Shown here piece after piece: positions 7,219-64,000 of a DNA stretch of 64,000 nucleotides; position 1 is the first letter of the stretch; each line of letters begins with the position of its first letter. This stretch comes from an uncultured Lachnospiraceae bacterium. Lineage in GTDB: Bacteria; Bacillota; Clostridia; Lachnospirales; Lachnospiraceae. The stretch is from positions 11,466-75,465 of the forward strand of contig CADANF010000010.1 of assembly GCA_902789175.1 (NCBI GenBank), written 5' to 3'. A program made the position numbers and the translations under genes. Under the pieces are notes generated by a model, which worked only from the letters and a program-made list of their open reading frames with translations, made no database searches and was not told the DNA's origin.

Positions 7219-7226
7219 GTATAATT

Positions 7227-7290: not shown

Positions 7291-7322
7291 GTGACGCATG
7301 TTTTAATCAAAACGATAATTTA

Positions 7323-7745: not shown

Positions 7746-7938
7746 CTTTTTACCTCCGGATTGATCTGTATTTACTTTTGCTAAAGGATTGCTCCGTTCT
7801 TTTATTCAAGTCACATTATAATATATTCTTTGATAAAGAAGCAAATTTGTTGATAAATTTTTTAAAAATTGCCGTGAAGTGTTGACAAGCCTTAACTTTT
7901 GTTGTAACGTGACTACGTAATTGTTAAGTATAAGATAT

Positions 7939-8050
7939 CTCTCTTATTCAGAGTGGTGGAGTCACAAGGGACTAAGAAGCCACGGCAACCCCTATATTTA
8001 AGGGAAGGTGCCGGCCTGAGCGGATATGATAATCCGAGCAATAAGGGGAT
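7939..8050 (+). ncRNA. SAM-I (S-box) riboswitch
   Basis: P1 CTCTTATT/AATAAGGG, conserved CAGAG-TGGTGGAG, CGGCAACC and GGTGCC elements. Lies directly upstream of metK. Confidence 0.88.
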
Positions 8051-8066
8051 TTGATGATAGATTTTC

Positions 8067-8100
8067 AAATCCGGTTTTTTTACACCGGATTTTTTGTTTT
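8067..8100 (+). terminator. Riboswitch-controlled terminator
   Basis: AAATCCGGT/ACCGGATTT stem plus U tract. The 5' arm can alternatively pair with GGATTTGA just after P1 (antiterminator). Confidence 0.8.
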
Positions 8101-8184
8101 TTAGAAATTCTTTTTATCAAAAACCATATAGCTTCATGCATTTGAAGTTAGGAGCGATATCCAAAAAAAAATAGGAGATACTCA

Positions 8185-9378: not shown

Positions 9379-9555
9379 TGGTTAGTTATTAGTTAAGCAT
9401 CATGAGAAATAATAGTTGGTTAAAATTATAATCAGCTATGTATTAAAAAAAGTAGTAACAAAATATGAAGAAAGTGATCCGGAAGATTATTTCCGGAAAG
9501 TGGTATATGTAACACAAGGCGTTAGGTTTTTAATAGAAGGCGGTAAATAAAAAAT

Positions 9556-47174: not shown

Positions 47175-47192
47175 GGCTTTTTCGGTGTTTTG
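47153..47192 (+). repeat. Left-end repeat, copy 1
   Basis: 40 bp identical to 49353-49392 (TGTGAAAATGCTTGAAATATAAGGCTTTTTCGGTGTTTTG). Looser similarity continues for about 110 bp. Confidence 0.95.
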
Positions 47193-47400
47193 CAAACTGA
47201 TAATTGTACTTCTGAAAAAGCTGCAAAAGACCCATAAATACTTGTGATTTTTATAGTTGAATAGACAGAAGTATTGAGAATAGGTTGGGTAGATAAAAAT
47301 GTTTATTCCTAATATGGATTAAAGCAAGATTGATAATAGGCTAATAATCATATGATATATTTTTATGGACAAGTAGCCTATTTGGGAAGGAGAGGTAGTT

Positions 47401-48321
47401 ATGCCAGGTAAGGTAAGAGTGATACCACCAAGGATAAGTGAACCCGTAAAGCACGTTGTCATCTATGCTCGTGTGAGTTCTAACAGTATGGAACAGCTGG
47501 AAAGTTTAAAGGCACAGATTTCTGGCCTGGTTGGATTTGTATCCGGGCATAATAACTGGAAACTTGTCGATATCCATATAGACATTGCATCCTCTAAAAA
47601 AGGATCTGCCCGTCCTGCATTTCATAAAATGATTGAAGAATGTAGAGCCGGACTTACGGATATCGTTGTAGTAAAGAATATCAGCAGACTGGGCAGGGAT
47701 ACGGTGGAAGTGCTTGATGCAATCAATACTTTAAAAGAAGCAGATGTACGTATTATTTTCAGACAGGAAGAGCTTGATACTTTAACTGTTGGAAGTTCGC
47801 TTTTAATATCTACCATAGAAGCCTGTACACAAGCAGAGAACGAAACACGAAGTGCTAATATTAAATGGGGTATCAAACAAAGAGCCAAGAATGGCAGCTT
47901 AGGCTTTTATCGAAGAAAATGCTATGGATATGATAAAGATAAAAATGGTGAGCTTGTAATCAATGAAGAACAAGCAGTAATCGTTAGACTGATTTTTGAT
48001 TTGTATCTTGGCGGTAAAAGCATATTAGGTATCGTCAAAGAACTTAAAGAGAGAGGCATTAAATCTCCTACAGGAAAAGATAACTGGCCTAAACGTTCAA
48101 TAGAAGAAATGCTGAGTAATGAGAAGTATATAGGTATTGCAGTAGTGAATGTGGATGGCGAAGAAGGTCAGGTTTATAAATTGAACAATTCTCATCCGGC
48201 AATTATTTCAAAAGAAATGTTCGATGTTGTTCAAGAAGAAAAGCTGAAACGCAGTAATTTAGTTGTTGATGAGAATGGAATACACAGAAGTAATAAGAAA
48301 TATAGTTCTGTGAAAAAATAG
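47401..48321 (+). CDS. Serine recombinase (resolvase plus recombinase domains, no obvious Zn ribbon)
   Basis: YARVSS (catalytic Ser), RPAF, SRLGRD, R-x-x-YGY, IISKEMFD. Confidence 0.92.
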   Translation: MPGKVRVIPPRISEPVKHVVIYARVSSNSMEQLESLKAQISGLVGFVSGHNNWKLVDIHIDIASSKKGSARPAFHKMIEECRAGLTDIVVVKNISRLGRDTVEVLDAINTLKEADVRIIFRQEELDTLTVGSSLLISTIEACTQAENETRSANIKWGIKQRAKNGSLGFYRRKCYGYDKDKNGELVINEEQAVIVRLIFDLYLGGKSILGIVKELKERGIKSPTGKDNWPKRSIEEMLSNEKYIGIAVVNVDGEEGQVYKLNNSHPAIISKEMFDVVQEEKLKRSNLVVDENGIHRSNKKYSSVKK

Positions 48322-48425: not shown

Positions 48426-49181
48426 TTGGAAAAATTTAATATTATTGATAACAAACTTACTAATTTAATTCCTATTGTTAATCCAGGCTTAAAAAATGAA
48501 TGTGGCATAAAGGCAGCCATTTTATATAGAATTCTTCCAAGTGTTGAAGTTGATTCATCTGAAATTGTTAGAAAATCATATGAGAAGTTTTATGGAGAGG
48601 ATATTCCCGAATCGGCAGACACGATATTTAATGCTTTTATTCCGTTTTTAGATTTTTGCCGTGCAAAAGAATTGAAATTGAAACTATATGATAAGCAGAG
48701 ACCACAAAAGGATGAACTGGCATTAATTTTTTTGAATTTAGAAAAAATATTTGATGGATATAGTGATCTAAAAGCATTATTTGATAGATTTTTTGATTTA
48801 ATGTACTCTTTTTCAAATTTAATGCCTGCCCCGAAATATTTCAATGGAAGCGATGGAAAGAATGGTAAAGGTACATGGAATCTTAATAAAGATTATCCAT
48901 CTGTTTATTATAAAAATCTAGAAGATAATAACTCTGGTATTTATAAAAGAGAAGAAATGAAACAATGGCTTGATGAGATAATGGATAAATATAGTATTGA
49001 AAATATGTATATGTTGGCTCCTCCGTATCCGATAAAAGAATACTATGGATATAATGATGACAAATTACCTCAATTAATATCGTATATAAAAGCTGCAATC
49101 AGATTGATAGAAGATAGATTTGAACAGGATTTTCAACCAGATAAAGCAATTGGTTCCAACTTGTCAATTCAAAGTGAATAA
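48426..49181 (+). CDS. Hypothetical protein, sole cargo of the mini-element
   Basis: 251-aa AT-rich ORF, TTG start after a GGAG RBS. Contains SNLMPAPKYFN....K. Confidence 0.75.
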   Translation: MEKFNIIDNKLTNLIPIVNPGLKNECGIKAAILYRILPSVEVDSSEIVRKSYEKFYGEDIPESADTIFNAFIPFLDFCRAKELKLKLYDKQRPQKDELALIFLNLEKIFDGYSDLKALFDRFFDLMYSFSNLMPAPKYFNGSDGKNGKGTWNLNKDYPSVYYKNLEDNNSGIYKREEMKQWLDEIMDKYSIENMYMLAPPYPIKEYYGYNDDKLPQLISYIKAAIRLIEDRFEQDFQPDKAIGSNLSIQSE

Positions 49182-49307
49182 TACAAATAGCCTACTTTCA
49201 GCTAGTTTGTAAACTGATTTGGAAACACACGAGAAATACTTTAATACACTGATAGACACAAGACTTCAGAGCTTTTTAGAATCAGAATGTAAATAGCCTA
49301 AGAATTT

Positions 49308-49349
49308 CATGTTGAGTGCGTGGTTCTGTTGACTAAAGTACATAATTGA
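49308..49349 (+). pseudogene. Displaced 3' end of rlmD (HVECVVLLTKVHN*)
   Basis: Translates as the typical RlmD terminal strand including the HVE glutamate. Confidence 0.85.
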
Positions 49350-49522
49350 TAGTGTGAAAATGCTTGAAATATAAGGCTTTTTCGGTGTTTTGAAAGTTGA
49401 AAATCAAGTGCTGAATAAGCAAGAAAAAAACTGGCAAATCTATCTGATTTTTATAGTTGGGTAGATAAGAATATTGAGATTAGGTTGGGCAGACAAAAAT
49501 ATTGAATGGTAGGTGATTCTAA

Positions 49523-50383
49523 ATGGCATACGGAAAATCAATAGAACTTTTTCTTGTAAATGGAACGGCTGACAGTTTGATTATAGCAGAACTATCAAAT
49601 TGGAACGGAAAGGCAATTAAGATTCCGCGTATAGAGGTGTCCGCTTGTAATCGTGACGACATTTCACAGGCAGGAGTATACTTCTTGTTCTGCAAGGAAG
49701 ATGATGGTTCAGACTCTGTATACATTGGAGAAGCTGAAAATGTAAAAGATAGACTTGTTCAACATTTAAGAGATTATCAATCTGAAAAAGAAAAATATTA
49801 TTGGAGTACTGCTGTTGTCTTTATTGGTAGAGATCTGAATAAAGCACTCATCAGATATTTGGAAAATCGATTTGTTGAGATAGCAAGAGCAAGTAAAAGA
49901 TATCTTGTGCTTACTAAGAATACCTATCGAAATACAGTTATGAAAGAATCGCAGATAGCTGTAATGGAAGAGTTCGTAGATAATGTAAAGATACTTATCA
50001 ATGCACTTGGTTATAAAGTATTGGAGCCTTTTGCTCAAGTAGATTCATCAACCGCTGCAGTAGATGATGAATTGCTTTATATTACATCAGGCTCTGTAAA
50101 CGCAACAGGCAAAGTGACATCTGAAGGATTTGTTGTATTTGCTGGAGCCACCTTAAATGAGAAAACGTCTGTGAAATCTTTAAGTGCTGGTATGCAAAAA
50201 CAGAGACAGAAATTGTTGGATTCATCAAAGGTTGATGATTTGGTTACAACTGAAGATATTCTATTTTCTAGTTCATCGGCAGCTGCGGATTTCATTCTTG
50301 GGTACAGTGTTAGTGGACCTAGAAGTTGGAAGAATAAAGAAGGTAAGACTTTAAAAGAAATTGAAAGTAATCAAACGGAATAA
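49523..50383 (+). CDS. GIY-YIG nuclease with C-terminal DUF4357-like domain
   Basis: GVYFLF...VYIGEAEN..RL..H and C-terminal FSSSSAAA...G...SG...WKN. Confidence 0.85.
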   Translation: MAYGKSIELFLVNGTADSLIIAELSNWNGKAIKIPRIEVSACNRDDISQAGVYFLFCKEDDGSDSVYIGEAENVKDRLVQHLRDYQSEKEKYYWSTAVVFIGRDLNKALIRYLENRFVEIARASKRYLVLTKNTYRNTVMKESQIAVMEEFVDNVKILINALGYKVLEPFAQVDSSTAAVDDELLYITSGSVNATGKVTSEGFVVFAGATLNEKTSVKSLSAGMQKQRQKLLDSSKVDDLVTTEDILFSSSSAAADFILGYSVSGPRSWKNKEGKTLKEIESNQTE

Positions 50384-50388
50384 GAGAC

Positions 50389-50425
50389 AATGGGTGTAAA
50401 GAATAAAATCCGACACCCATTTTTC
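50389..50425 (+). terminator. Terminator-like hairpin
   Basis: AATGGGTGT/ACACCCATT stem plus T run. Confidence 0.55.
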
Positions 50426-50493
50426 GAATTGAAAGTATTCCTCCGTAGGTATAGAATAGATATATAGTGTTTTCCTAAAATGCATGGAGGTTA

Positions 50494-50700
50494 ATGATGG
50501 AATTTTATACAACAATGGAAATGGCGAAGATATGGAAAATATCAAGAAGAAGAGTTACAACTCTTTGCACAGAAGGAAGAGTTGAAGGCGCTGTACTAAA
50601 AGGAAACACATGGCTTATACCTAGTGATGCAAAAAAGCCAGAAGACCCTAGAAAACTCCGTAATTACGAACGGGTTATCAAGAATTGTGATAAAAATTGA
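50494..50700 (+). CDS. Small excisionase-like HTH DNA-binding protein (putative controller)
   Basis: YTTMEMAKIWKISRRRVTTLC.EGR..GA...G..WLIP pattern, GGAGG RBS. Confidence 0.75.
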   Translation: MMEFYTTMEMAKIWKISRRRVTTLCTEGRVEGAVLKGNTWLIPSDAKKPEDPRKLRNYERVIKNCDKN

Positions 50701-50719
50701 AACAGAAACAGGTGAGATT

Positions 50720-52570
50720 ATGAGATATTTAGGAAGTAAAATAAAATTACTTTCGTCAATTGATGAAGTTATAAAAGAAAATAATATTGAAGGAGAAACG
50801 TTTGCGGATTTGTTTGCAGGGACAGGTTGTGTGGGGGACTTTTTTAAAGATAGATATCAGATTATTTCGAATGATTTTTTGTTCTATTCGTATGTTATGA
50901 ATAGAGCAAAATTAAAAAATGATTCTATCCCCAAGTTTGATTGTTTCAGAAAAAAGTACAAATCCGATATATTCGAATGGCTTAATACTCAAACATACAT
51001 TCCAGATGATTCATACTTCATTTATTTAAATTATACACCAATTGGTAATAGAATGTTTTTTACTGAAGAAAATGGAATAAAGATTGATGGAATAAGACAG
51101 AAAATTGAAGAATTAAGGGCAAAGAATATAATTGATGAAGAAGAATATTACTATCTGATTGCATCAATGATGGAAAGCATTACAAAGGTGTCTAATATAT
51201 CTGGAACATATGAGGCATTCTTCAAATTTTGGGATTCACGTGCGGAAAAAGATTTTGATCTTCAACCACTTGAGATAAATGAGGCTCCATTACACGCAAA
51301 CAACCTTATCTTTAATGAGGATACGAATAAATTAGTAAGGGAAATAAAAGGAGATATTGCATATATTGATCCACCATACACTGTTACACAGTATATTTCG
51401 GCGTATCATATGTTCGAAACATTGGCAAGGTACGATTACCCAACCATCAAAGGAGTTGGTGGAAAAAGAGGTAGAGGTGACAAGAATTCATTATATGCTC
51501 AGAGAACAAAAGCCAAGTTGATATTTGAAGACTTATTTAGACAGATTCAATTTAAGCACATCTTGATCAGTTATAGTAATCAAGGTCTTGTACCAATTGA
51601 AGAATTGTGTGAATTGGCAAGTAATTTTGCTGTGAATGGGGCAGTAAAAATTAATCATTATGATTACCGAGAATATCAAAATCATCGTTCTAGCAATAAA
51701 CGAAATGGAGAAAACTTAAATGAGGTAATTATCTATTTTGAAAAAGATATGCAAATTAATAAATCACCGATTAATTATTCTGGGAGCAAAGATACCCTAG
51801 TGCCAGATATTATTAAAGCTTTGCCGGCAAATGTTGATGTATTTGTTGATGCAATGGGTGGTGCATTTAACGTTGGAGCCAATATTACAGCATTGAATAA
51901 AGTAGTGTATAACGAAATGAATCCCTTTGTTTATGAACTGGTTTCATGGATGGTAAATACACCAAAGGAAGAACTGATTAATGCTATTGAAAAAAAGATA
52001 GAGCAGTTTGGAATGAAAAAAGCCGATGAAAATGCGTATAAACGACTAAGAGATACATATAACGCAGAACAAAATCCATTAGAATTATTTGTTTTACATA
52101 TGTATTCGTTTCAAAATATGATTAGATTCAACGGAAGTCATAAATTTAACACTCCTATAGGTGTGGCAGGATATAGTGATGACATGAAACAACGTATATT
52201 GGATTTTAAAGTTAAAGCACCTCTTCTAGAGTTATTAAATATTGATTATGTCAATTTAGATTGGGATAGCTATCCACCTAATACTGTGTTTTATTTTGAT
52301 CCACCGTATTATATAACAAGCGCAGCCTATAACGATGGTAAAAGAGGAATGAAAGGCTGGGGTCTAAATGAAGAAGTTGAACTTTTGAACACATTAAAGC
52401 ATATTGATGAACTTGGTCATAAATTTATTCTTTCAAATGTTATTAGACATAAGGAAAAAGAACATACATTACTTATTGAATGGGCTAAAGAGAATAATTT
52501 TAGAGTTATAGATGCAGGAGTCAGCGGTTGGCGTTATGCAAAAAATGAAGTAATGATTCTTAATTATTAA
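50720..52570 (+). CDS. Double-domain N6-adenine DNA methyltransferase (M.FokI/M.LlaI type)
   Basis: Two Dam-like halves: YLGSK..FADLFAGTG..YIDPPY and YSGSK..FVDAMGG..YFDPPY. ATG 50720 follows a GGTGAG RBS. Confidence 0.92.
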   Translation: MRYLGSKIKLLSSIDEVIKENNIEGETFADLFAGTGCVGDFFKDRYQIISNDFLFYSYVMNRAKLKNDSIPKFDCFRKKYKSDIFEWLNTQTYIPDDSYFIYLNYTPIGNRMFFTEENGIKIDGIRQKIEELRAKNIIDEEEYYYLIASMMESITKVSNISGTYEAFFKFWDSRAEKDFDLQPLEINEAPLHANNLIFNEDTNKLVREIKGDIAYIDPPYTVTQYISAYHMFETLARYDYPTIKGVGGKRGRGDKNSLYAQRTKAKLIFEDLFRQIQFKHILISYSNQGLVPIEELCELASNFAVNGAVKINHYDYREYQNHRSSNKRNGENLNEVIIYFEKDMQINKSPINYSGSKDTLVPDIIKALPANVDVFVDAMGGAFNVGANITALNKVVYNEMNPFVYELVSWMVNTPKEELINAIEKKIEQFGMKKADENAYKRLRDTYNAEQNPLELFVLHMYSFQNMIRFNGSHKFNTPIGVAGYSDDMKQRILDFKVKAPLLELLNIDYVNLDWDSYPPNTVFYFDPPYYITSAAYNDGKRGMKGWGLNEEVELLNTLKHIDELGHKFILSNVIRHKEKEHTLLIEWAKENNFRVIDAGVSGWRYAKNEVMILNY

Positions 52571-52593
52571 AAATCAAGAAAGGAGATAATATT

Positions 52594-53442
52594 ATGGGTC
52601 ATATTTTAGTTTTACCAGAAGACTTGAGAGTAAAACTTAATGCCGCTAATCTAGATGCAAATACACACAATAAATGGGTGGCAATAGGAGTTAATACTGT
52701 TGATGATATGATAAATCGTATTGTTAATGATTTAAATCATGCGTACCCGGTACTTTCGATAACATCTACAAGAGAAGAAAATAAAAATACTATTAAATCA
52801 CGTATAGACAGTACTGGTAATGTTTCAATGTTTGTAGGTTATTTTGAAAACGATAAAGGTTATGTAGATGCTTTGTTCTATTATATCCCTCCAGATGCTT
52901 CAAATGCTAACGATTTTTTCCCGGCAAAAATTATGCCACCACTTTTTGGTATTTATAACAATATTAAAGATAGAACAAAAGACTTACATATACATTGTAT
53001 GCCGGTATTTATTATTAATTTATGTACAACATCCAGAGTAAATAATGCATCTGTAAAAAAGCAGATGGTTTGCTGCGAGACGTTAGGTTTTAATTATTAT
53101 GATATTTTTCAAAATGGATATCACGATGTTATAGGTCGAACAGATGCGGATGGAAATGCTATAACAGAACTACAACGTTTGAGTGAATTAGATGAACTCC
53201 TTGGAGGTGTTACTAATAACAAATGGTTTGAAGTTGATTACACAAATAAAAAATTGAAAATCTTGTCAACAACAGTAACAAATTCAACGAATGCAACATC
53301 AGATGTTTATAGGTTAAGTCTTTATGTCATTCCTGCAGTTTACTTTGCTGTAGATGAAGGTTTTAGTATTGATGCATCAAGCATTTCTACATTGGGTGGG
53401 GATGTGGCTGAAACATTAAGGAATTTCATATCCAAATTTTAA
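52594..53442 (+). CDS. Hypothetical protein, putative first restriction subunit (LlaI.1-like position)
   Basis: 282-aa ORF with strong RBS between the methylase and the McrB-like gene. No motif recognised. Confidence 0.65.
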   Translation: MGHILVLPEDLRVKLNAANLDANTHNKWVAIGVNTVDDMINRIVNDLNHAYPVLSITSTREENKNTIKSRIDSTGNVSMFVGYFENDKGYVDALFYYIPPDASNANDFFPAKIMPPLFGIYNNIKDRTKDLHIHCMPVFIINLCTTSRVNNASVKKQMVCCETLGFNYYDIFQNGYHDVIGRTDADGNAITELQRLSELDELLGGVTNNKWFEVDYTNKKLKILSTTVTNSTNATSDVYRLSLYVIPAVYFAVDEGFSIDASSISTLGGDVAETLRNFISKF

Positions 53443-53464
53443 AGATTAATATGGAGGTATTTAT

Positions 53465-54412
53465 ATGCAAACGATTTATTACGGTGCTCCTGGTACAGGA
53501 AAGAGCCATACAATTGATACAGATATAATTAGTGGGGTTAGCGATGATAGGGTGTTTCGTGTTACCTTCTATCCTGATTTTACTTATAGTGATTTTATAG
53601 GACAATTGTTGCCAAAAGTGATCCCTTCAGCTGTTCCGGGAGGAAGCAGTACTATAACATATGATTTTCAAAAAGGCGTATTTACTAACGCACTTGAGAA
53701 AGCGTATGAAAATACTGCAAATGATGTGTATCTAATTATAGAAGAAATGTCTAGAGGTGATTGTGCGGCAATCTTTGGTGATATATTTCAGCTATTGGAT
53801 AGAGAAAAAACAGGGACAAACAGAGGATTCAGCAAGTATTTTATTACCAATGAATTAATTGCTAAAGATATTATTCCTTTAAGAACTAATGGGAACAAGG
53901 TAAAACTTCCTCCGAATTTTCATATTTTAGGAACAGTAAACACAAGTGATCAAAATGTGTTTGTTATGGATACTGCGTTTAAGCGAAGATTTGAATGGGA
54001 ATATGTAAGCCCAAATCCTGTTCGTGAGTCTGCACCAGGAGTTACTCCAATTGTATACAAAAATGATGTGCAATTAGACATCCATGATGGAACTACGATG
54101 AAAACAATTTCATGGGTTGAACTGTATCAGAAGTTAAATGACTTTATTGCTGATGATAGATATCTTGGACTTGGTGAAGATAAGCAGTTAGGACCGTTTT
54201 TCATTGAATTTGACTTGTCTGCAACTCCAGATGCCCATAAAAAACAAATCAAGAATAAGCTGCTTCACTATTTATGGAGTGATATACACAAGGCTTCATA
54301 TAAAAGTGATGTGAATTTATTCAAAGAAGATATTGGTACATTTAAGAAGTTGTATGAATGCTTTGAGGATGACAAACAAATTTTCAGTTCAGCATTTATT
54401 GATACTCTGTAG
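53465..54412 (+). CDS. McrB-like AAA+ GTPase lacking an N-terminal DNA-binding domain
   Basis: Walker A GAPGTGKS starts at residue 7. FYPDFTYSDF, IIEEMSRG, signature NTSD, DTAFKRRF. Confidence 0.9.
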   Translation: MQTIYYGAPGTGKSHTIDTDIISGVSDDRVFRVTFYPDFTYSDFIGQLLPKVIPSAVPGGSSTITYDFQKGVFTNALEKAYENTANDVYLIIEEMSRGDCAAIFGDIFQLLDREKTGTNRGFSKYFITNELIAKDIIPLRTNGNKVKLPPNFHILGTVNTSDQNVFVMDTAFKRRFEWEYVSPNPVRESAPGVTPIVYKNDVQLDIHDGTTMKTISWVELYQKLNDFIADDRYLGLGEDKQLGPFFIEFDLSATPDAHKKQIKNKLLHYLWSDIHKASYKSDVNLFKEDIGTFKKLYECFEDDKQIFSSAFIDTL

Positions 54413-54426
54413 TAGAGGTGAGTCCA

Positions 54427-55689
54427 ATGAGCGCAATATACTATTATGGACAAGATGGGGAAATTGCTGATCAAAACCTAATAAAAATATTTGGACTGGG
54501 AACAAGAGAACTTCGCCATTCGGATAAGCTGGACGCTGATGTATTCGATGTCGTTGGATTTGTGTATAAAGATAACAAGATACTAGTTGTATTTCCTAAA
54601 CATTATTATAGTAAGGCGGATATTGATAGATTCAATCAAAGCGGTATCAGTCTGAGTTATGATATCAAATTGCTATACAACGTTATAAAAAAATACGGAG
54701 AGACAGAAAATACAAATGCAGTAGCAAGATCTTATTTGGGTGCTAAAGATGGATATTCAGCAGATTACCCTTTCAAACCATTTTATGAAGTGTATGATTA
54801 TTTTCAAAAATACGGTATATATAAGGAAAAAGAGATTCGTATTATTGAAGGAACATCTGGTAGAGTATCTTGGAAGGATACAATTAGAAAATCAAATAAG
54901 ATTATAAGCGGTGGCAATTTGATTTTTTCTCCATTTTATACATATAAGAAGAATTACAATGATGTTTTCTTAACAGAATGTATGGCATTTATAATTGACT
55001 ATACTATTGATTTTTTCAGTGATTTTCTAACAATGAAAAAAACAGGTGTTAGATACTATTTTGATTTTCCTAATAATATTGATTATGTTATACGACAATT
55101 AAATTTACATCAAAGCAGGATGTTTAAAGATACACAAAAACATCTTGTTAAGAGCATGATAGAGTTTTTCGAACAGTTCAAAGGAAAATCTAAAGGAGGA
55201 AAAGTACACGTAAAAATAAGGTATTTCGATATGATTTGGCAGTGCATGATATCTAAATATCTAAATAGACATTTTGCAGGGATCGACCCTTGCAACGGTG
55301 CTGCTGTTTTTGATGAAGGACTATCAAACTCTGTGATTTCTTTTTCCCAAAAAAGATTTACGGACATCGATTTGTCGCATAATAATTTTTATATTGATGT
55401 TGACCATATTGCGTACGAAGATGATGTACTATACATATTTGATTCAAAGTATTATTCAGCAATTAATGACCTAAATTATAAGCAACTGTCCTATAATGAG
55501 ATACTTAGATATCATTACCCAGGTGTAGTTGAAATAGATAATATTTTAATTTTGCCTGGAACAGATGGGGCAGATTTGCATTTTGCGTATGCTCCAGATT
55601 ATGTTGGAACAAGAACTATTGGAACAAAAATTATTGAACAATTTATAATGCCAAAAAAGGTTATGGAAGATTATTTACTTTCTAACTAA
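54427..55689 (+). CDS. McrC-like / LlaJI-family PD-(D/E)xK restriction nuclease
   Basis: G.VSWKDTI McrC-like motif and IDVDH...IFDSKYY...YKQLSY catalytic pattern. GAGGTG RBS favours ATG 54427. Confidence 0.85.
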   Translation: MSAIYYYGQDGEIADQNLIKIFGLGTRELRHSDKLDADVFDVVGFVYKDNKILVVFPKHYYSKADIDRFNQSGISLSYDIKLLYNVIKKYGETENTNAVARSYLGAKDGYSADYPFKPFYEVYDYFQKYGIYKEKEIRIIEGTSGRVSWKDTIRKSNKIISGGNLIFSPFYTYKKNYNDVFLTECMAFIIDYTIDFFSDFLTMKKTGVRYYFDFPNNIDYVIRQLNLHQSRMFKDTQKHLVKSMIEFFEQFKGKSKGGKVHVKIRYFDMIWQCMISKYLNRHFAGIDPCNGAAVFDEGLSNSVISFSQKRFTDIDLSHNNFYIDVDHIAYEDDVLYIFDSKYYSAINDLNYKQLSYNEILRYHYPGVVEIDNILILPGTDGADLHFAYAPDYVGTRTIGTKIIEQFIMPKKVMEDYLLSN

Positions 55690-55713
55690 TGAATACTTAA
55701 GGGGGGCGCAAAG

Positions 55714-57189
55714 ATGAAAAGGTTATGTTTAGGTACTATGATAACTATATTGTATCAGTGTCGCACACGTAGCGCAGATACTATTAAGTCTGTGTGTAGT
55801 GGTATTTTTGCGGCCTACGGCTTGGATATTAATAATTACAACAAGGAATTACCAAGTCATCTGAAAAGTGGTCATGACCCCGTTCCGGGAGATTTACTTA
55901 TTAAGGCACGAGAAACTAATATTGATGATGTTGCTCTAGGTATAGAAAATCGTGTGCTTCCATTAATTCATCAAGACAAGCATATTTATTTGTTCCGTGC
56001 ACTCAAAGATATTCTAAAAGAGGATACTACGATTGCAGATTCTACTGTGGTTGGTGTAATGCCTGGATACGAGAAATCGAGTATTTTAAATTTCGATTCA
56101 TTTTACGAGGCAATGACTCTCGCAAACATTCTTACATATGCTATTACTCAAGTAGAAAATGACAAATTGAAGTCCAATATTAGAGAGATTGGTAAAGATT
56201 ATATTGATGGGTTCGCTGGCTCAACGGAAAAAGTGTTTTTCTTATCCCCGGTAGTAGAGAACGACCATTTATCCCCTTTGAAAAGAACCCTGAAAGATCC
56301 TATGTTTGATAGGGTATTTTGCAAAGCAACAGATATTACGGTATCGGCACTTGCCAATCCAACTACAGCATCTGTGTTTTATATAGACCCAAGTAATTGT
56401 AAATTTAGGTTCAGCGGTTTGAAAGATTTCATTATCAATAACATAGGAAGCTATGTCTTTTCGAGAGCACAGATAAAACGAATTATTGATAGAACAAAGA
56501 ATGAAGCCGCCGTTGGTTCACAGGCTATGTTAAAGTTTATTACAACATATGGTTCAAAGGCAGAGACGGTCCTAGGAGAAATACTTCTTTATATATTTAT
56601 GGAACAGGAGTTAGATGCTCCAAAGATTATGAGCAAGGTTGAAATAGATGAGACAAATCGTAATGCCGTTAGTAAGAGTGATGGTGTGCATTTGCTTTCA
56701 ATTAATAAATCTGGACAGCCATTTCATCAATTAGTATTTGGTGCATCAGATATTGTAGGTGACTTGCAGTTGGCTATAGACCGTGCTTTTGAAAAAATAA
56801 TTTCAGTTGAGGCGAATCAAGATACTGAACTCCGAATGGTTGATAATACAACACAGTGGACTATTTATGATCCAGAGGCAACACAGTATATGGTGGAACT
56901 AATGACTCCTCAAAGGAATGGATCCTACAAGCCGGATATGGCATTTGGAGCATTCCTTGGATATACAATAAGGTTGGATAATCCAGAAACAGATAGCCAA
57001 AAATATCGTATTGCTGTAAAAGAACAGCTGAAAAAAGATATAGCAAATGTGCAGCCATATATTGTGAAAAAAATTCAAAACAATGGATTGAGTGGATATA
57101 GTTTTTACTTTTATCTGCTTCCATTTAATGATGCTTCAAGCGAAAAAACTAGCATCATTCAAGAACTACTTTCGGGAGGTGGCATCTGA
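55714..57189 (+). CDS. HamA-like (DUF1837) protein with an extra N-terminal domain
   Basis: GEILLYIFMEQELDAPKIMSKVE...SDGVH is the DUF1837 pattern. About 190 extra N-terminal residues. Confidence 0.78.
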   Translation: MKRLCLGTMITILYQCRTRSADTIKSVCSGIFAAYGLDINNYNKELPSHLKSGHDPVPGDLLIKARETNIDDVALGIENRVLPLIHQDKHIYLFRALKDILKEDTTIADSTVVGVMPGYEKSSILNFDSFYEAMTLANILTYAITQVENDKLKSNIREIGKDYIDGFAGSTEKVFFLSPVVENDHLSPLKRTLKDPMFDRVFCKATDITVSALANPTTASVFYIDPSNCKFRFSGLKDFIINNIGSYVFSRAQIKRIIDRTKNEAAVGSQAMLKFITTYGSKAETVLGEILLYIFMEQELDAPKIMSKVEIDETNRNAVSKSDGVHLLSINKSGQPFHQLVFGASDIVGDLQLAIDRAFEKIISVEANQDTELRMVDNTTQWTIYDPEATQYMVELMTPQRNGSYKPDMAFGAFLGYTIRLDNPETDSQKYRIAVKEQLKKDIANVQPYIVKKIQNNGLSGYSFYFYLLPFNDASSEKTSIIQELLSGGGI

Positions 57190-59807
57190 TGAATTTAGTG
57201 CCTAGAAATGCCACACTTGCGGAGGCATTATATAGGGATATTGACAAAAATGATTATTTACAGGAAATCTACGGAGATCTTTTGTATAACTACTCAATAA
57301 AGCTATTTCATACAGACAGAAGACCACGTGATATTCCTATTAGTGATGCTTTGCGTTTTGCTGATTTGCTATCAAAGTCATCTTATCCAATTACTTCTGA
57401 TAGAGATCACTTGTGGGGACAGGAAATTGCCATTCTTTTGCGTTTACTTTATCCAGAAGATAAGGCAGTAAAATACTATCTAGGTTCTGTGCTTTCGTCT
57501 GTCGGAAATTATCGTGGTTTAATGTCAAGGACGATAGAAGGATTTCAATGTAAAGATTTCTTTGATAGCATTTATTATGAGTATGACAAAGAAGAACATC
57601 GAATTCCAGGTAAGGATGAAGAGTATTTTTTTAATGACCAAATGCTGGTTTATAAAGGCTTAAGGGAAAAAGTCTTCAGTTACTCTGGACCGACTTCTAT
57701 GGGAAAATCATTTGTTGTACAGACATATATTCAACAACAAATCGAGAATGGATCGACAGATAATTTTGCAATTCTCGTACCAACGAAGGCTCTTATTAAT
57801 GAAGTTAGAAGCAATATGATAGGAACTCTTCAGGACAAACTTAAAGAATTAAATTATCGTGTGGTCACTGCATCGGGAGATTTGGTTTTACAACAAGATC
57901 ATCATTTTATATTTATTATGACCCCAGAGCGTTTGCTTCATATGATGATTGAACGAGATAATATTAATATAGATTTCTTGTTTATTGATGAAGCTCATAA
58001 AATTTCAGCACGTGGAGGAAGAAGCTCATATTACTATAAAGTTCTTACACAGTTAGGAAGTATGCAACAATTACCAACAGTAATTTTTGCTTCTCCCAAT
58101 ATTCCAAATCCAGAAATATATACGAGGGTTATTCCAGGAATAGAACAAACACAAATGAAGAAGTTGATATCAAGATTTGCTCCTGTGTGTCAGTTCAAAT
58201 ATTTTTTGAATGTTCCTGAAAGAAGTGGTTATTATTACAATGATTATAGTAAAAAATTAGAACGTTGCTATACCTTACCCGAAGGACAAGAATTATGTGA
58301 TATTGTTGCTACAGTAGGTCAAGATAAGCAAAATGTTGTTTATTGTAGTTCACGAAGAAGTGTACTGGAACAGGCTGTAAAATATGCAAGTAATATTGCA
58401 CCGAAGACAGATGAAGGTCTTATTGCATTAGCTGCAGAAATAAGAAAGGAAGTACATGATGACTGTTATCTTGCAGATTTAATTGTAAGAGGAGTTGCAT
58501 ATCATGTGGGATATCTTCCAGCAAATATCAGGCTCCGTATAGAAAAGAGTTTTGAAAAGGGAGATTTAAGAACTATTTTCTGTACGAGTACCCTAGTAGA
58601 GGGCGTAAATCTTCCAGCAGATAACTTGTTTATTACTAGTTATCGAAACGGTCCTAGCAACATGGACGAAGTGGATTTTAGAAATCTTGTAGGACGAGTG
58701 GGAAGAATTAAATATAACCTGTATGGCAATGTTGTTCTAGTCAGATTAGACGATAAGCTTAAGGCAGAACGTTATACTGAACTCCTTAAAAAGGAAGTGC
58801 CGGCACAGGAATTATCTATTGACATAAAGAACAATACGGATTGCATGAGTGCCCTTGTTAAGGATTTGGCTGATGGAGACATCGAGATGACTACTTGCCA
58901 TGAAAAGGCAACAGAAAAGGATTTCGAGGCACTTCGTAAGTTTGGTCTTATTTTGATAAGAGATTTGGCGAATGGAGACAGTACTCCGGTATCACAAAAG
59001 TTTGATGAGTACCTAACTGAAAAGCAAAAGCAACGCATTATAGAAAATTTTCCTACTGAAAAAACTAGTGATGATATTACGATTTCACATGACCAAGCAA
59101 CTAACTTGCACGATGCGATTTTACAGGGTCTACATTATCCTGAATTACAAGGTGAGGACGATGATGTGGATTTTGAGAAAGTGGTTGACTTCATGATGAT
59201 GCTTCGTAGATTGTTTAAGTGGGATATTTATGAAAAAGAAACATTAGGAAAACCGGGAACTTATAGACTAGACTCTGTTATTCGATGGTATTCAACGATT
59301 TTACTTCGTTGGATTCGAGGAAATGGATTGCAAGTATTAGTAAGCAGTGCTGTCAGTTATAAAGAAAAGAATCCTAATACAGGGGTATGGTCGGGGCAAT
59401 ACAAAGTATCAGATATATATAATAAAAATTCAAAATACCACAAGAATTTAGTTATTGCTGAATCTTTGAGTGTAATAGAAAATGTTTTGCTATTCAGCAT
59501 ATCAAATTATTTCAGAAAGTTTTCACTTGAATATAAGGCAATACACAACCTTGATCATTTTGATAATGATTGGTATGAGTATGTGGAATATGGAACTACC
59601 AACCCAGATACTATATTTCTTCAGCAAAGTGGATTTTCTAGAGAAGCTTCATTGTACATACAAAAACCATCAAATTATGCAAAATATGTGGTTGATGACA
59701 ACGGTATTAAAAAAATAAAAATAAGCATTCTAGGATGCGGCAACATTGGTGTAGAAACTGAAGCAGCAGACATTCAGTACAATATGCCAGAGCTGTTTAC
59801 TGAATAG
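57189..59807 (+). CDS. HamB-like SF2 DEAH helicase
   Basis: GPTSMGKS, TPER, IDEAHK, AYHVG, STLVEGVNLP, NLVGRVGR. TGATG overlap with the HamA-like gene. Confidence 0.85.
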   Translation: MNLVPRNATLAEALYRDIDKNDYLQEIYGDLLYNYSIKLFHTDRRPRDIPISDALRFADLLSKSSYPITSDRDHLWGQEIAILLRLLYPEDKAVKYYLGSVLSSVGNYRGLMSRTIEGFQCKDFFDSIYYEYDKEEHRIPGKDEEYFFNDQMLVYKGLREKVFSYSGPTSMGKSFVVQTYIQQQIENGSTDNFAILVPTKALINEVRSNMIGTLQDKLKELNYRVVTASGDLVLQQDHHFIFIMTPERLLHMMIERDNINIDFLFIDEAHKISARGGRSSYYYKVLTQLGSMQQLPTVIFASPNIPNPEIYTRVIPGIEQTQMKKLISRFAPVCQFKYFLNVPERSGYYYNDYSKKLERCYTLPEGQELCDIVATVGQDKQNVVYCSSRRSVLEQAVKYASNIAPKTDEGLIALAAEIRKEVHDDCYLADLIVRGVAYHVGYLPANIRLRIEKSFEKGDLRTIFCTSTLVEGVNLPADNLFITSYRNGPSNMDEVDFRNLVGRVGRIKYNLYGNVVLVRLDDKLKAERYTELLKKEVPAQELSIDIKNNTDCMSALVKDLADGDIEMTTCHEKATEKDFEALRKFGLILIRDLANGDSTPVSQKFDEYLTEKQKQRIIENFPTEKTSDDITISHDQATNLHDAILQGLHYPELQGEDDDVDFEKVVDFMMMLRRLFKWDIYEKETLGKPGTYRLDSVIRWYSTILLRWIRGNGLQVLVSSAVSYKEKNPNTGVWSGQYKVSDIYNKNSKYHKNLVIAESLSVIENVLLFSISNYFRKFSLEYKAIHNLDHFDNDWYEYVEYGTTNPDTIFLQQSGFSREASLYIQKPSNYAKYVVDDNGIKKIKISILGCGNIGVETEAADIQYNMPELFTE

Positions 59808-59821
59808 TAACAGATGTCTTT

Positions 59822-59856
59822 AAGACCTCTTGCGAAAGCGAGAGGTCTTTTTTTTA
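59822..59856 (+). terminator. Intrinsic terminator closing the defence operon
   Basis: AGACCTCT-TGC-GAAA-GCG-AGAGGTCT plus T8. Confidence 0.88.
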
Positions 59857-59871
59857 TGCGTTTTTTTACTT

Positions 59872-59910
59872 TCCCAATTCACTCCCAAAGGTCTCCCAAC
59901 CATTCCCCAA
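59872..59910 (+). repeat. Four CCCAA motifs phased at exactly 11 bp
   Basis: CCCAA at 59873, 59884, 59895 and 59906. Confidence 0.8.
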
Positions 59911-60001
59911 GTGGGCATATATAAATCAAAACCATATTTTTTTATACTGAAAGAGGCTTAAGAAAACAAGCTACTTTTAAGAGAAAGTGAGGTGGCTGGC
60001 A

Positions 60002-60142
60002 ATGGGTAAGAACTCAAAGCAAACATCCAAGATAGTTGCTTCGAAAGCAAGCAAAGTTCTTCGTGATGGAAGATTCAGCAAGACATCAAAGTCTGTAGCT
60101 GGAAGTGCATTAGCACAAACAAGACCAGGCAAGCGTAAGTAA
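60002..60142 (+). CDS. 46-aa Lys/Ser-rich basic small protein (missed by the ORF track)
   Basis: GAGGTG RBS, then MGKNSKQTSKIVASKASKVLRDGRFSKTSKSVAGSALAQTRPGKRK*. Confidence 0.75.
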   Translation: MGKNSKQTSKIVASKASKVLRDGRFSKTSKSVAGSALAQTRPGKRK

Positions 60143-60424
60143 GACTGGCACCTTTGGTGGGCAGAGCGAGATTGGATAATCATCCTGTCCACCTCCCTTC
60201 GGGGAAAACACAAATATTAAATATCACAAGGCCTGATTAGCTATAAGGGCATTGGGATACAGATATCGACATCAACCGCAGGACAACCTGTGGAAGGTGT
60301 GATAGAGGTACCCTTATTTCCTTATGCCCTTTTTCAGGCTTCATGGGTCGGTACTTCTATAAGCGCCGGCCTTTATTTGTTCCCATTGCCCTTCTGCAAG
60401 AACCAGGCAGAAAGGCAGGAACTT

Positions 60425-60940
60425 ATGAAAATCAAGATTCGTTATGAGAACGAGTATCAGACCCTTGAGGTCGAAAACGTGGAATTAGAGAGATGGCTTA
60501 ATATCTCCATTTCAGAAAATGAAAGCCAGGAAGACTACGAACAGAGAATCCAGGATGTAATCGAAGAGAGATTCAACAGACCCGATTACAACAGCTGGCA
60601 CAAGCATGACCGTCACACTGGCAATGCTTATATGAAAAGCAAGGACGGAACAGTTGAGGTCAACACAGAAGAAGCAATTATGTACAGAGCAGCTGATAAG
60701 TCAGCCTTTAACAGTTCTATTGACGGAGTACATAACCAGCTTGAATACGAAGAGTGCTGTGAAACTTTGAGAAGTCTTCTTAAACCTGCAGTGGCTGATA
60801 TGGTCATTGCCATTGCCCTTGACGGATACACCGTTGGCGAGTATGCAGCAGAAATCGGTGAGGATGCCAACACTGTCAGTCATCGTTACAGACGTGCAAT
60901 CAACAAATTAAAAAAAGTTTTTTCAAAAACGTCCTTTTAA
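60425..60940 (+). CDS. Sigma70 region-4-like HTH regulator
   Basis: C-terminal GYTVGEYAAEIGEDANTVSHRYRRAINKLKK. RBS supports ATG 60425, not 60290. Confidence 0.8.
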   Translation: MKIKIRYENEYQTLEVENVELERWLNISISENESQEDYEQRIQDVIEERFNRPDYNSWHKHDRHTGNAYMKSKDGTVEVNTEEAIMYRAADKSAFNSSIDGVHNQLEYEECCETLRSLLKPAVADMVIAIALDGYTVGEYAAEIGEDANTVSHRYRRAINKLKKVFSKTSF

Positions 60941-61008
60941 CCCTTCTCCCAAGGCTACCAGGTAGGAGGGTGACACCTCCGAGAAATTAATTTAAGGAGG
61001 TAATTCGT

Positions 61009-61776
61009 ATGGAATTACAAGTATTTAACAGCACAGAGTTCGGCTCTGTAAGAACAGCAACTGTAAACGGTGAGGTTATGTTTGTCGGCAAGGATGTTGC
61101 AGACATTCTCGGGTACCAGAACGGTAGTCGAGATATCAACCGCCATGTAGATGAAGAGGACAGACACAAGGTAATGATCTTTGACGGTAACCAGGATAAG
61201 GAAACCATCATCATCAATGAGTCTGGACTTTACAGTCTTATCCTTTCAAGCAAGATGCCGAATGCGAAGAAGTTCAAGCATTGGGTTACATCAGAGGTTC
61301 TTCCAGCTATCCGTAAGCATGGAATGTATGCCATCGATGAGATCTTAGAAAATCCTGATCTTGCGATTGCAGCACTCACACAGCTTAAGGAAGAGCGTGA
61401 GAGAAGAAAACAGCTTGAATGTCTGGCACTTGTTCAGCGTCAGCAGATTGCAGAACTCCAGCCAAAGGCAAGCTACTATGACCTTATTTTACAGAACAAG
61501 AACACAGTACCTATTACACAGATTGCAAAGGACTATGGTATGAGTGGTCGCAAGTTCAATGAACTTCTTCACGAACTTGGGGTTCAGTACAAGTTCAGAA
61601 AGACCTGGCTTTTATATCAGCACTATGCAGAGTGTGGATACACACAGTCCCGTACCTACGCAATTGATGAGAGCAGAAGTGTGATGCATACCTACTGGAC
61701 TCAGAAGGGCAGACTTTTCCTTTATGACCTTTTGAAGAATGAAGGGATCTTACCAGTTATCGAACAGGAGGATTAA
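61009..61776 (+). CDS. BRO-N / ANT(KilA-C) phage antirepressor
   Basis: FVGKDVA.ILGY, INESGLYSL, FKHWVTSEVLPAIRKHG, ITQIAKDYG, WTQKGRLF. Confidence 0.92.
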   Translation: MELQVFNSTEFGSVRTATVNGEVMFVGKDVADILGYQNGSRDINRHVDEEDRHKVMIFDGNQDKETIIINESGLYSLILSSKMPNAKKFKHWVTSEVLPAIRKHGMYAIDEILENPDLAIAALTQLKEERERRKQLECLALVQRQQIAELQPKASYYDLILQNKNTVPITQIAKDYGMSGRKFNELLHELGVQYKFRKTWLLYQHYAECGYTQSRTYAIDESRSVMHTYWTQKGRLFLYDLLKNEGILPVIEQED

Positions 61777-61781
61777 GAGAT

Positions 61782-62222
61782 ATGGGTGTTGATAAGTTTA
61801 ATCACGAAGGGTACTTTGACCCGACCACATATGAGGCTCTTACCAACATCCACCGTGAGGAAATGGCAGCTGATAAAAAGGCTGCCTATCTTCCTTTGGT
61901 GTATGTGTGCAGTCCATATGCAGGTGATGTTGAAACCAATGTAAAGAATGCAAAACGATACAGCAGATTTGCTGTTGATGAAAATGCTATCCCGGTAACA
62001 CCTCATCTTTTATATCCACAGTTCATGGATGACGGTAATGAGGCTGAAAGAGAGATGGCTATGCATTTCAATTATGTACTTCTTGGCAAATGCACAGAGG
62101 TCTGGGTCTTCGGTGGAGTGATTAGCCGTGGCATGGCTCGTGAGATTGGTGTAGCTAAGAAAAGAAGAATGAAGATCAGATGGTTTACCCAGGATTTGAA
62201 GGAGGTCGGAGAATATGATTGA
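61782..62222 (+). CDS. Phage protein, nucleoside deoxyribosyltransferase-like (DUF4406-like) fold
   Basis: VYVCSPYAGD, PHLLYPQF, CTEVWVFG..S.GM..E pattern. Confidence 0.7.
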   Translation: MGVDKFNHEGYFDPTTYEALTNIHREEMAADKKAAYLPLVYVCSPYAGDVETNVKNAKRYSRFAVDENAIPVTPHLLYPQFMDDGNEAEREMAMHFNYVLLGKCTEVWVFGGVISRGMAREIGVAKKRRMKIRWFTQDLKEVGEYD

Positions 62223-64000
62223 TTTTACTGTTTATTCAGCAGACTGTGTCGGCAACAGCGGTAACTGTCTGTATCCCAATAAGAATATTGTAACGGATAA
62301 AGAGTCCTTTATCGCAGCAACCAAGATGGATCATGTCACTGCAAAGTATAAGGGAAACTATCGCAGTAAGGATAATTTTGAATCTTCCGACTGTATTCCT
62401 CTTGACTGTGACAATGACCATTCAGAGAACCCGGAAGACTGGCTTACTCCTTTTGATATCGCATTATCAATTCCGGGAGTTGTTTTCGCTGCATCTTACA
62501 GCAGACACCACAATCTTCCAAAGGGTGACAAATCGGCAAGACCAAGATTTCATGTGTTCTTCCCTATACCAAAGGTAACGGATGGAGAAGAGTATGCAGC
62601 CATGAAACGCAAGATAGCTGATGCTTTCCCTTATTACGATACCAACGCATTAGACTCTGCAAGATTCCTTTATGGCAATGACTCTGATGAGGTGGAGTTT
62701 TATGAAGGTGACAAAACCATTCTTGATTATCTGGAAGAGGATGATTTCGCAGATTTCGATGCAAGCCTTGAGCAGGTGCCAGAAGGTCAGCGTAACAGCA
62801 CCATGAGCCATATTGCCGGAAAGATTATCAAGAGATACGGAAATACAGAAGAGGCTTATCAGATCTTCCTTAAGAAGGCAGAACTCTGTAATCCACCACT
62901 TCCTGAAAGTGAACTCAAGGTGATATGGAGAAGTGCATCAAAGTTCGGTAACAAGGTATCGAACCAGGAAGGATACATTCCACCTGAACAGTACAACTCC
63001 GACTGCAGATTAAAGCCGGAAGACTTCTCCGATGTTGGACAGGCTACGGTTCTTGCAACAGAGTATAAGGACATCCTTCGCTATTCCCCATCTACTGATT
63101 ACATGGTTTACAACGGCAGTTTCTGGGAAGAGTCAAAACCAAAGTCCCAGGGTGTTTCCCAGGACTTGACAGAAAGACAGCTTGCAGAGGCTGAAACTGA
63201 AATGAAGAAGGCTATGGATGAACTTGTAAAGAATGGTGGCATGGAGATTCTCGTATCCGTGGGTCCGAAAAAAGCTGTGCAGATGTTCAACAAGCAGCAG
63301 GCTCATGCCTACGAGATGTATGAAGATGCTGTGGCTTACAAGAAATATGCCATTAAGCGAAGAGATACAAAGAACATTGCTGCCACATTAAAAGAGGCTC
63401 GTCCGATGCTTGAAGTGGAACAGAGAAACCTTGATGCCGATGAGTTCATGTTAAACACTCCGACTCTTACCTATGATCTAAGACAGGGCACCAAGTTTCC
63501 GATGGAACACAGACCAGAGCATTTCATCACAAAGCAGACAACCGTTGACCCATCAAGTGATGGAGCAGATATCTGGGCAGCTGCACTTGATACCTTCTTT
63601 TTAAAGGATACCGACCTTATCGATTATGTTCAGAGAATGGTTGGTCTTTCAGCAATCGGCAAGGTGTATGTGGAGGCACTCATTATCGCATATGGAGAAG
63701 GCCGCAATGGTAAGTCAACCTTCTGGAATGTTATCGCAAGAGTCCTTGGTACATACTCAGGAAACATTTCTGCTGATATGCTGACCGTTGGTTGCAGAAG
63801 AAATGTCAAGCCAGAACTTGCCGAGGCAAAGGGTAAGAGAATGCTCATTGCAGCAGAGCTGGAAGAAGGCATGAGACTGAATACCGCTAATGTTAAACAG
63901 CTTTGTTCTACCGATGAAATCTATGCTGAAAAGAAGTATAAAGATCCGTTCTCATATACTCCGACACATACACTTGTGCTTTATACCAACCATCTGCCAA
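62215..64000 (+). CDS. Phage/plasmid P4-family primase-helicase (N-terminal primase, PriCT, D5/SF3 helicase), 3' end outside the window
   Basis: Open frame from ATG 62215 (GGAGG RBS): LDCDND, RFHVFFP, GQRNS, Walker A GEGRNGKST at about 63694. Absent from the ORF track because there is no stop in the window. Confidence 0.88.
   Translation, partial: MIDFTVYSADCVGNSGNCLYPNKNIVTDKESFIAATKMDHVTAKYKGNYRSKDNFESSDCIPLDCDNDHSENPEDWLTPFDIALSIPGVVFAASYSRHHNLPKGDKSARPRFHVFFPIPKVTDGEEYAAMKRKIADAFPYYDTNALDSARFLYGNDSDEVEFYEGDKTILDYLEEDDFADFDASLEQVPEGQRNSTMSHIAGKIIKRYGNTEEAYQIFLKKAELCNPPLPESELKVIWRSASKFGNKVSNQEGYIPPEQYNSDCRLKPEDFSDVGQATVLATEYKDILRYSPSTDYMVYNGSFWEESKPKSQGVSQDLTERQLAEAETEMKKAMDELVKNGGMEILVSVGPKKAVQMFNKQQAHAYEMYEDAVAYKKYAIKRRDTKNIAATLKEARPMLEVEQRNLDADEFMLNTPTLTYDLRQGTKFPMEHRPEHFITKQTTVDPSSDGADIWAAALDTFFLKDTDLIDYVQRMVGLSAIGKVYVEALIIAYGEGRNGKSTFWNVIARVLGTYSGNISADMLTVGCRRNVKPELAEAKGKRMLIAAELEEGMRLNTANVKQLCSTDEIYAEKKYKDPFSYTPTHTLVLYTNHLP

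Follow-up and report, generated by a model that had tools for sequence, protein, structure and literature searches.

Two adjacent genes, here called hamA and hamB, lie toward the right end of a 64,000-nucleotide stretch of DNA (the window, to which coordinates refer unless a related locus is named) from an uncultured Lachnospiraceae bacterium, on contig CADANF010000010.1 of assembly GCA_902789175.1. They had been singled out as a Hachiman-like pair in an original prediction made from the sequence alone. The genes and their expression signals are as follows.

55714..57189, + strand: hamA, long form, encoding 491 amino acids (aa), with an N-terminal helical domain and a catalytically degenerate DUF1837/HamA domain (open reading frame (ORF) call and Pfam).
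57189..59807, + strand: hamB, 872 aa, a superfamily 2 helicase of the Ski2/Hel308-like type (ORF call and Pfam).
55700..55707, + strand: Shine-Dalgarno-like sequence AAGGGGGG, 6 nucleotides (nt) 5′ of the hamA ATG (direct reading of the sequence).
59822..59856, + strand: intrinsic terminator with a 12-bp stem and a T-run, just 3′ of hamB.

Both ORFs are intact and full length. The stop codon of hamA (TGA, 57187-57189) and the start codon of hamB (ATG, 57189-57191) share one nucleotide at 57189, generating a TGATG junction; the ORFs and the overlap that couples hamA to an 872-aa DEAH helicase are exactly as originally described. The start of hamA is supported by the conservation of the N-terminal sequence MKRLC among its homologues. 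The hairpin following hamB is the sole terminator-like site on the + strand within 49000-60400. A promoter scan returned fewer sites than were found in shuffled sequence, and was uninformative.

The assignment of the pair to the Hachiman family is based on both sequence and structural matches. The hamA product matches the Pfam HamA/DUF1837 family (PF08878) over residues 236-471 with an E-value of 5.1e-39, and matches 18 HamA models of PADLOC. One of these, the HamA1 model PDLC00164 of PADLOC-DB 2.0, aligns over its whole length (positions 1-490 of 490; E 2e-231). By contrast, the PADLOC models of short HamA proteins start aligning only at residues 189-215, in agreement with the N-terminal extension of about 190 residues beyond the core that had been noted previously. 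We collected 333 HamA homologues, most of them about 490 aa in length. HamB contains the Pfam domains DEAD, ResIII and Helicase_C, and matches the PADLOC HamB1 model PDLC00190 with an E-value of 0. Its helicase motifs are intact, and are listed here with the DUF1837/HamA domain of HamA:

56419..57126, + strand: DUF1837/HamA domain, HamA residues 236-471, PD-(D/E)xK fold lacking the ExK residues (Pfam and Foldseek).
57687-57710, + strand: HamB Walker A motif GPTSMGKS, residues 167-174, intact.
57987-57998, + strand: HamB DEAH motif, residues 267-270, intact.
58692-58706, + strand: HamB motif VI GRVGR, residues 502-506, intact.

In a sequence search of the PDB, HamB matched 9wh1_B with an E-value of 5.5e-66, and a profile of HamA matched its partner, the trypsin-HamA 9wh1_A, with an E-value of 1e-11 in the DUF1837 domain only. 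Searches of the PDB with HamA, whether by sequence or by profile, found 9wh1_A alone and did not reach canonical HamA (8vx9_A). A Foldseek search using a full-length AlphaFold2 model of HamA gave as its only probable matches E. coli HamA (8vx9_A, with a probability of 1.00, and 8vxy_A) and AbpA (8zue_A). The E-values of the family matches span 1e-39 to 0, well past chance. Thus there is a DUF1837 HamA adjacent to a Ski2/Hel308-like helicase with intact ATPase motifs, as in Hachiman, without the D-GExK nuclease motif of that family; the combination of an additional N-terminal domain with loss of D-GExK is that of the fusion-HamA class. On these matches we predict that the two genes make up a genuine Hachiman system with a HamA of the fusion type.

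The sequence motifs on which the original prediction drew are present in HamA at the places given.

56575-56592, + strand: GEILLY, HamA residues 288-293.
HamA residues 302-308: APKIMSK.
56677-56691, + strand: SDGVH, residues 322-326, in which D323 is the retained aspartate of the PD-(D/E)xK motif.
56737-56754, + strand: FGASDI, HamA residues 342-347.
56740..56751, + strand: G343-A344-S345-D346, replacing the canonical G-E-[SA]-K (alignment with four short HamAs).

As the PDB sequence searches had missed canonical HamA, the catalytic residues were mapped through the nearest short HamAs, found by tblastn against plasmids. These are proteins of 331-346 aa from Rhodococcus, Paenarthrobacter, Paracoccus and Sphingobium, the gene for each being followed by one for a DEAD/DEAH helicase, and they were aligned with the HamA of the window and with AbpA of E. 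coli K-12 using MAFFT. The short HamAs read YQLIFG-E-S-K or IYWG-E-A/S-K where the window protein reads HQLVFG-A-S-D and AbpA reads IG-F-S-E. E289 of the helix-GE sequence and D323 of SDGVH are aligned with their counterparts in the short HamAs, while D356 stands where the short HamAs have K or T. Thus the E and K of ExK have been lost and D323 retained, and the degeneracy of the motif that had been proposed is borne out.

This is a property of the clade rather than of one protein. We surveyed 153 long forms, comprising 114 close homologues and 39 representatives of clusters at 50% identity. Position 344 (the glutamate of ExK) is D or E in none of the 153, and is A, S, T, V, I or C in the 114 close homologues. 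Position 346 (the lysine) is K in none of the 114 and in two of the 39 distant representatives; over the survey as a whole it may be D, N, H, K, E, C, S, Y or L. The aspartate at 323 is present in all 114 close homologues and in 19 of the 39 distant representatives. Given the complete absence of an acidic residue at 344, the near absence of lysine at 346 and the partial retention of D323, the alignments indicate that the canonical ExK site is lost throughout the long-form clade, its remnants decaying with distance. In E. coli HamA the double substitution E138A/K140A abolishes defence (PMC12278908), and in the type III-B HamA of S. thermophilus D90, E93, D127, E147 and K149 are all essential (PMC13064477).

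Loss of these residues need not in itself mean loss of activity. HamA might instead be rewired, cutting DNA with E289, D323 and a migrated acidic residue D356 in the manner of Cfr10I or NgoMIV, with the N-terminal domain having a regulatory or sensor function. PD-(D/E)xK enzymes can relocate catalytic residues, and E289, D323 and D356 are each invariant in the 114 close homologues, the last of these in place of the K or T of the short proteins. However, no conserved lysine or other residue substitutes for that at position 346, and D323 is gone from 20 of the 39 distant representatives in which the invariant residues of the N-terminal domain persist. Moreover, both of the characterised fusion-HamA proteins are nuclease-dead in the DUF1837 domain. 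Since nothing that is conserved replaces the lysine, and since D323 is dispensable in relatives, we regard a rewired active site as unlikely.

Loss of the canonical catalytic residues would also be expected if hamAB were a decaying, non-functional remnant of a Hachiman system, and one related locus (L004, Eubacterium sp. 14-2, 8001-10395) may be of that character; there the hamA homologue matches residues 1-393 only and no hamB homologue follows it, so that this copy is apparently disrupted. In the window, however, both ORFs are of full length, the HamB motifs are intact, and neither the translational coupling nor the terminator has been lost. In addition the architecture is conserved in hundreds of full-length homologues, even at identities as low as about 25%. 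It is therefore extremely improbable that the pair of the window is such a remnant.

The N-terminal extension of HamA (the N-domain) was examined as a separate module. Its elements are:

55714..56244, + strand: N-terminal all-alpha domain, residues 1-177, candidate effector (AlphaFold2 model).
55726, 56023, 56074, 56137 and 56158, + strand: codons of the near-invariant residues C5, D104, K121, Y142 and N149, respectively.
56245..56298, + strand: inter-domain linker, residues ~178-195, with predicted local distance difference test (pLDDT) values below 50 at 178-192 in the full-length model.

AlphaFold2 modelled residues 1-177 with a pLDDT of 95.9 and a predicted template-modelling score (pTM) of 0.92, as ten helices with strand or bridge assigned by DSSP only at isolated residues. 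Residues 1-177 are thus confidently predicted to be an independently folding module. A Foldseek search with the N-domain, which had been suggested with the original prediction, gave no fold match in the PDB, and no family was found in Pfam or NCBIfam. The domain is nevertheless widespread. A HMMER scan of residues 1-215 against 1.84 billion cluster representatives gave 223 clusters (at 50% identity) with E ≤0.001; the hits of a profile search of a 5.8-billion-protein index were largely fragments, contributing little to the census of architectures. In all domain contexts C5, D104, K121, Y142 (which is sometimes F) and N149 are invariant or nearly so. Among the 39 distant HamA fusions each of the five is kept in 32-38, above the residues of the nuclease site. 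Comparing these values with the 19 of 39 for D323, the constraint appears to have shifted from the nuclease site to the N-domain. The near-invariance of the five residues suggests an enzyme or a specific ligand-binding site rather than a passive spacer. Prompted by these residues, and by a hydrophobic central helix, we considered HEPN, papain-like, isochorismatase-like (D-K-C), tyrosine-recombinase and pore-forming identities for the N-domain; lacking support from motif or fold, these were rejected or left open.

The architectures in which the N-domain occurs were compiled from the representative search and Pfam for the 68 cluster representatives of at least 300 aa. HamA is the partner in 43 of these, and a C-terminal domain (CTD) of ABC-3C proteins in others (CTD11 in 12 and CTD6 in four); the N-domain is also carried by a STAND NTPase with NB-ARC and TPR domains (P0222) and by a NACHT-domain protein. 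Some of the partners are large proteins without Pfam hits. In one CTD6 protein (P0238) the C-terminal half matches the LmuA models of PADLOC, while the N-terminal half has as its only match positions 1-195 of the HamA1 model. The gene for a 300-aa form (P0270) is part of an HTH-effector-DUF2326 operon that adjoins a type III restriction-modification (RM) system. In both the LmuA proteins of Lamassu/ABC-3C and the STAND/AVAST proteins the N-terminal position is the site of the effector. The distribution of homologues thus indicates that the N-domain is a mobile module, which Lamassu/ABC-3C and STAND proteins have in their effector slot.

We note two further proteins, P0239 (1028 aa) and P0247 (1072 aa), in which the N-domain is followed by a long C-terminal region without a Pfam family. 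The former has weak WD40-like signals, and an HD-like stretch (AALHDAIED) near its C-terminus. They could represent additional immune chassis equipped with this effector cassette.

Since the N-domain folds separately, and since Lamassu/ABC-3C and STAND proteins carry it at their effector position, it is the best candidate for the effector of this system. In the original prediction that role had been offered either to the N-terminal domain or to a neighbouring McrC-like or GIY-YIG nuclease; the first is upheld, while the second is unlikely, as the neighbours vary. Our interpretation is that the pair is probably a fusion-HamA Hachiman system in which HamB is the sensor, the dead HamA domain a scaffold and the N-terminal helical domain the effector. 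By analogy with canonical HamAB, AbpAB and HamMAB, HamB would survey DNA, acting as a sensor of DNA or of DNA damage, and damaged DNA or the replication intermediates of phage would trigger its hydrolysis of ATP. The dead HamA domain (dHamA) would serve only for the docking of HamB and as an oligomerisation scaffold, linking HamB to the fused N-domain, possibly via oligomerisation. From the domain architecture, the output would be provided by the fused helical domain of ~177 residues, which would be switched on once HamB had encountered its DNA trigger and hydrolysed ATP, leading to growth arrest, cell death or abortive infection.

Three observations weigh against this. The invariance of E289, D323 and D356 in close homologues would be consistent with a rewired metal site in this particular protein; the N-domain, being without fold or family match, has no biochemical activity that can be assigned to it; and no defence phenotype for this clade was found in the literature. 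A more specific proposal, which we put forward tentatively and judge somewhat short of probable, is that the N-domain is an enzymatic effector with a new fold and an active site made up of the Cys, Asp, Lys, Tyr and Asn residues, and that it has been swapped as a cassette among Hachiman, Lamassu/ABC-3C and STAND/AVAST-like systems, with a new chemistry of abortive infection.

The pair can be compared with a number of known systems. In canonical HamAB (E. coli ECOR31, PDB 8VX9; S. thermophilus type III-B) there is the same DUF1837 fold, an intact HamB ATPase and adjacent, translationally coupled genes. However, canonical HamA is a protein of ~260-345 aa that requires D...ExK (E138 and K140 in E. 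coli; D127, E147 and K149 in S. thermophilus), while in the window protein the glutamate has become A344 and the lysine D346, and there are 190 additional residues at the N-terminus.

The closest solved structures are those of trypsin-HamA/HamB with its metallo-β-lactamase (MBL) nuclease (HamMAB; PDB 9WH1, 9WHK and 9WHU), where, as in the window, HamA carries an N-terminal fusion and lacks the nuclease residues. The preprint in which 9WH1 was solved states that the catalytic residues are missing (bioRxiv 10.1101/2025.09.03.673762), and in the trypsin-HamA and MBL nuclease system the dHamA domain is required for activation by oligomerisation (PMC12799240). The window differs in that its N-domain is all-helical, no protease family being found in residues 1-180, and in that HamMAB has an upstream MBL pro-nuclease where the window has a McrC-like gene; no MBL gene was found in the window or in the related loci. 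AbpAB (E. coli K-12 YfjL/YfjK; PDB 8ZUE) also resembles the window pair in having an inactive HamA domain, a second effector domain and a Ski2-like helicase partner. Tuck et al. (PMC12278908) described AbpA as a variant of Hachiman whose HamA is inactive and which has a nuclease at its N-terminus. That nuclease is Cap4, an effector that is also used by Lamassu, and the cassette logic is the same. The additional domain of AbpA is thus a Cap4/DUF4297 PD-(D/E)xK nuclease of alpha/beta fold, to which the all-alpha domain of the window, with no DUF4297 hit, is unrelated, and AbpB (729 aa) is more remotely related to HamB of the window (E 1.6e-17). The same N-domain is joined to CTD6 or CTD11 in some LmuA-type proteins of Lamassu/ABC-3C, but the window pair is not a Lamassu system, having HamA instead of an ABC-3C CTD, a helicase as partner and no adjacent gene for an SMC/ABC ATPase.

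The pair had been thought the best candidate in this DNA for an undescribed defence system. That claim does not stand, because the 2023 PADLOC model PDLC00164 covers the complete long form including the N-terminus, and fusions were catalogued in 2025. In that study 4,094 HamA sequences were analysed (Science 2025, PMC12799240), and its preprint states that virtually all HamA fusions lack D-GEXK. Five fusions, namely TIR, trypsin, YTH, helical bundle (HB) and Cap4, are listed there (supplementary Figs S6 and S7), and according to its methods the HB domain was also analysed where it occurs in proteins other than those of Hachiman. As described, HB-HamA is like HamA of the window in being a long form whose N-terminal domain is all-helical and which lacks a nuclease gene co-occurring upstream, and the paper reports no function or experiment for it. 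From this description we infer that the N-domain very probably belongs to the published HB class. The hamAB pair thus appears to be a member of a catalogued, functionally unstudied subclass.

Upstream of hamA in the window is a restriction-modification cluster comprising a methylase, a 282-aa ORF, a McrB-like gene and a McrC/LlaJI-like gene, with a GIY-YIG gene further upstream and a recombinase gene on the left flank of the island.

47401-48321: serine recombinase, 306 aa, short for a large serine recombinase.
49523-50383: GIY-YIG and DUF4357 protein, 286 aa, PADLOC candidate single-gene family PDC-S14 (E 5e-99).
50624-52570: double D12-class N6-adenine methyltransferase fusion, 648 aa, PADLOC MTase_II PDLC03287 (E 1e-219).
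53465-54412: AAA_5 McrB-like protein, 315 aa.
54418-55689: McrC/LlaJI-like protein, 423 aa, ending 24 nt upstream of hamA.

The methylase is presumably the modification half of a LlaJI-like system. Within 52594-54412 the McrB-like protein covers only positions 266-532 of the 585-residue PADLOC REase_II model. The 282-aa ORF that precedes it, ending 22 nt upstream, has no family hit, and at related loci the equivalents are single proteins of 570-755 aa. The DNA-recognition and GTPase parts of the McrB-like protein thus seem to be split into two ORFs, or interrupted, in the window.

The genes upstream of hamA were compared between related loci in other genomes. The cargo is a C5 methylase with AAA_5 and McrBC genes at L002 (Peptostreptococcus stomatis), AAA_5 with RE_LlaJI at L003 and L004, type I RM at L009, L010 and L012, and unrelated genes at L005 and L008. 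At no locus examined was there an MBL nuclease gene or a second copy of the N-domain. As the upstream genes differ between genomes while hamAB persists, hamAB is a constant two-gene unit and its neighbours are interchangeable cargo of the island. Given this variation, the McrC-like or the GIY-YIG neighbour is unlikely to be an effector acting in trans.

Yet the neighbouring genes could be involved in another way, if the N-domain were an adaptor, similar to an effector-associated domain, that recruited the McrBC/LlaJI-type nuclease, the GIY-YIG protein or the product of an unlinked gene. Known adaptor domains are all-helical, as is the N-domain. In the window and at L001-L004 (where they lie at ~6500-7980) an AAA_5 McrB-like gene is accompanied by a McrC/LlaJI-type gene 20-24 nt 5′ of hamA, and in the window there is no terminator between the McrC-like gene and hamA. 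However, these McrC/LlaJI-type genes belong to differing families (PF10117 McrBC, PF09563 RE_LlaJI and the unassigned 423-aa protein of the window) that are not BLAST-similar to each other, while hamAB of the five loci is 66-87% identical. Moreover, type I RM or unrelated genes take their place at other loci, the single-gene family of the GIY-YIG/DUF4357 protein is a stand-alone candidate, and no second copy of the N-domain was seen at any locus. Five near-invariant polar or aromatic residues, conserved across contexts, would be expected of an active site more than of a homotypic adaptor. Such a role is accordingly unlikely, and the pairing of McrC-type genes with hamAB could reflect either exchange of cargo at a hotspot or a functional preference for RM together with Hachiman.

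Several loci with type I RM upstream have a conserved ORF of 60-64 aa, without Pfam hits, ~30 nt 5′ of hamA (7788-7970 in L009 and L010, 128-310 in L011 and 800-994 in L013); this is absent from the window.

The defence island extends over ~48.4-59.8 kb, with a GC content of 0.32-0.35. In the left flank (45681-48321) the serine recombinase adjoins a gene similar to rRNA/tRNA U5-methyltransferases. GC content climbs from ~0.35 to 0.44 at 60 kb, and the right flank (60000-64000), of higher GC content, contains genes for ECF-sigma-like, Bro-N/KilAC antirepressor, DUF7768 and D5_N/PriCT primase proteins; taken as a whole, the right end of the window resembles an integrative mobile element. Just past the hamB terminator there is a small ORF (60003-60140), encoding a very basic, Ser/Lys-rich peptide of 45 aa, MGKNSKQTSKIVASKASKVLRDGRFSKTSKSVAGSALAQTRPGKRK, with its own ribosome-binding site GAGGTGG.

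Tools of the PADLOC type would label the pair of the window simply as "Hachiman type I", masking the dead nuclease. The fusion-HamA systems illustrate the re-arming of a sensor chassis, made up of HamB and a dead HamA scaffold, with different effectors. Of these effectors the Cap4 nuclease and the trypsin/MBL pair are understood, unlike the helical domain of the window. If the N-domain is an enzyme, its activity on nucleic acid, a nucleotide cofactor, protein or membrane would be a new chemistry of abortive infection. As the domain is present in 223 clusters and on three unrelated immune chassis, that activity would explain part of Hachiman, Lamassu and STAND immunity together.

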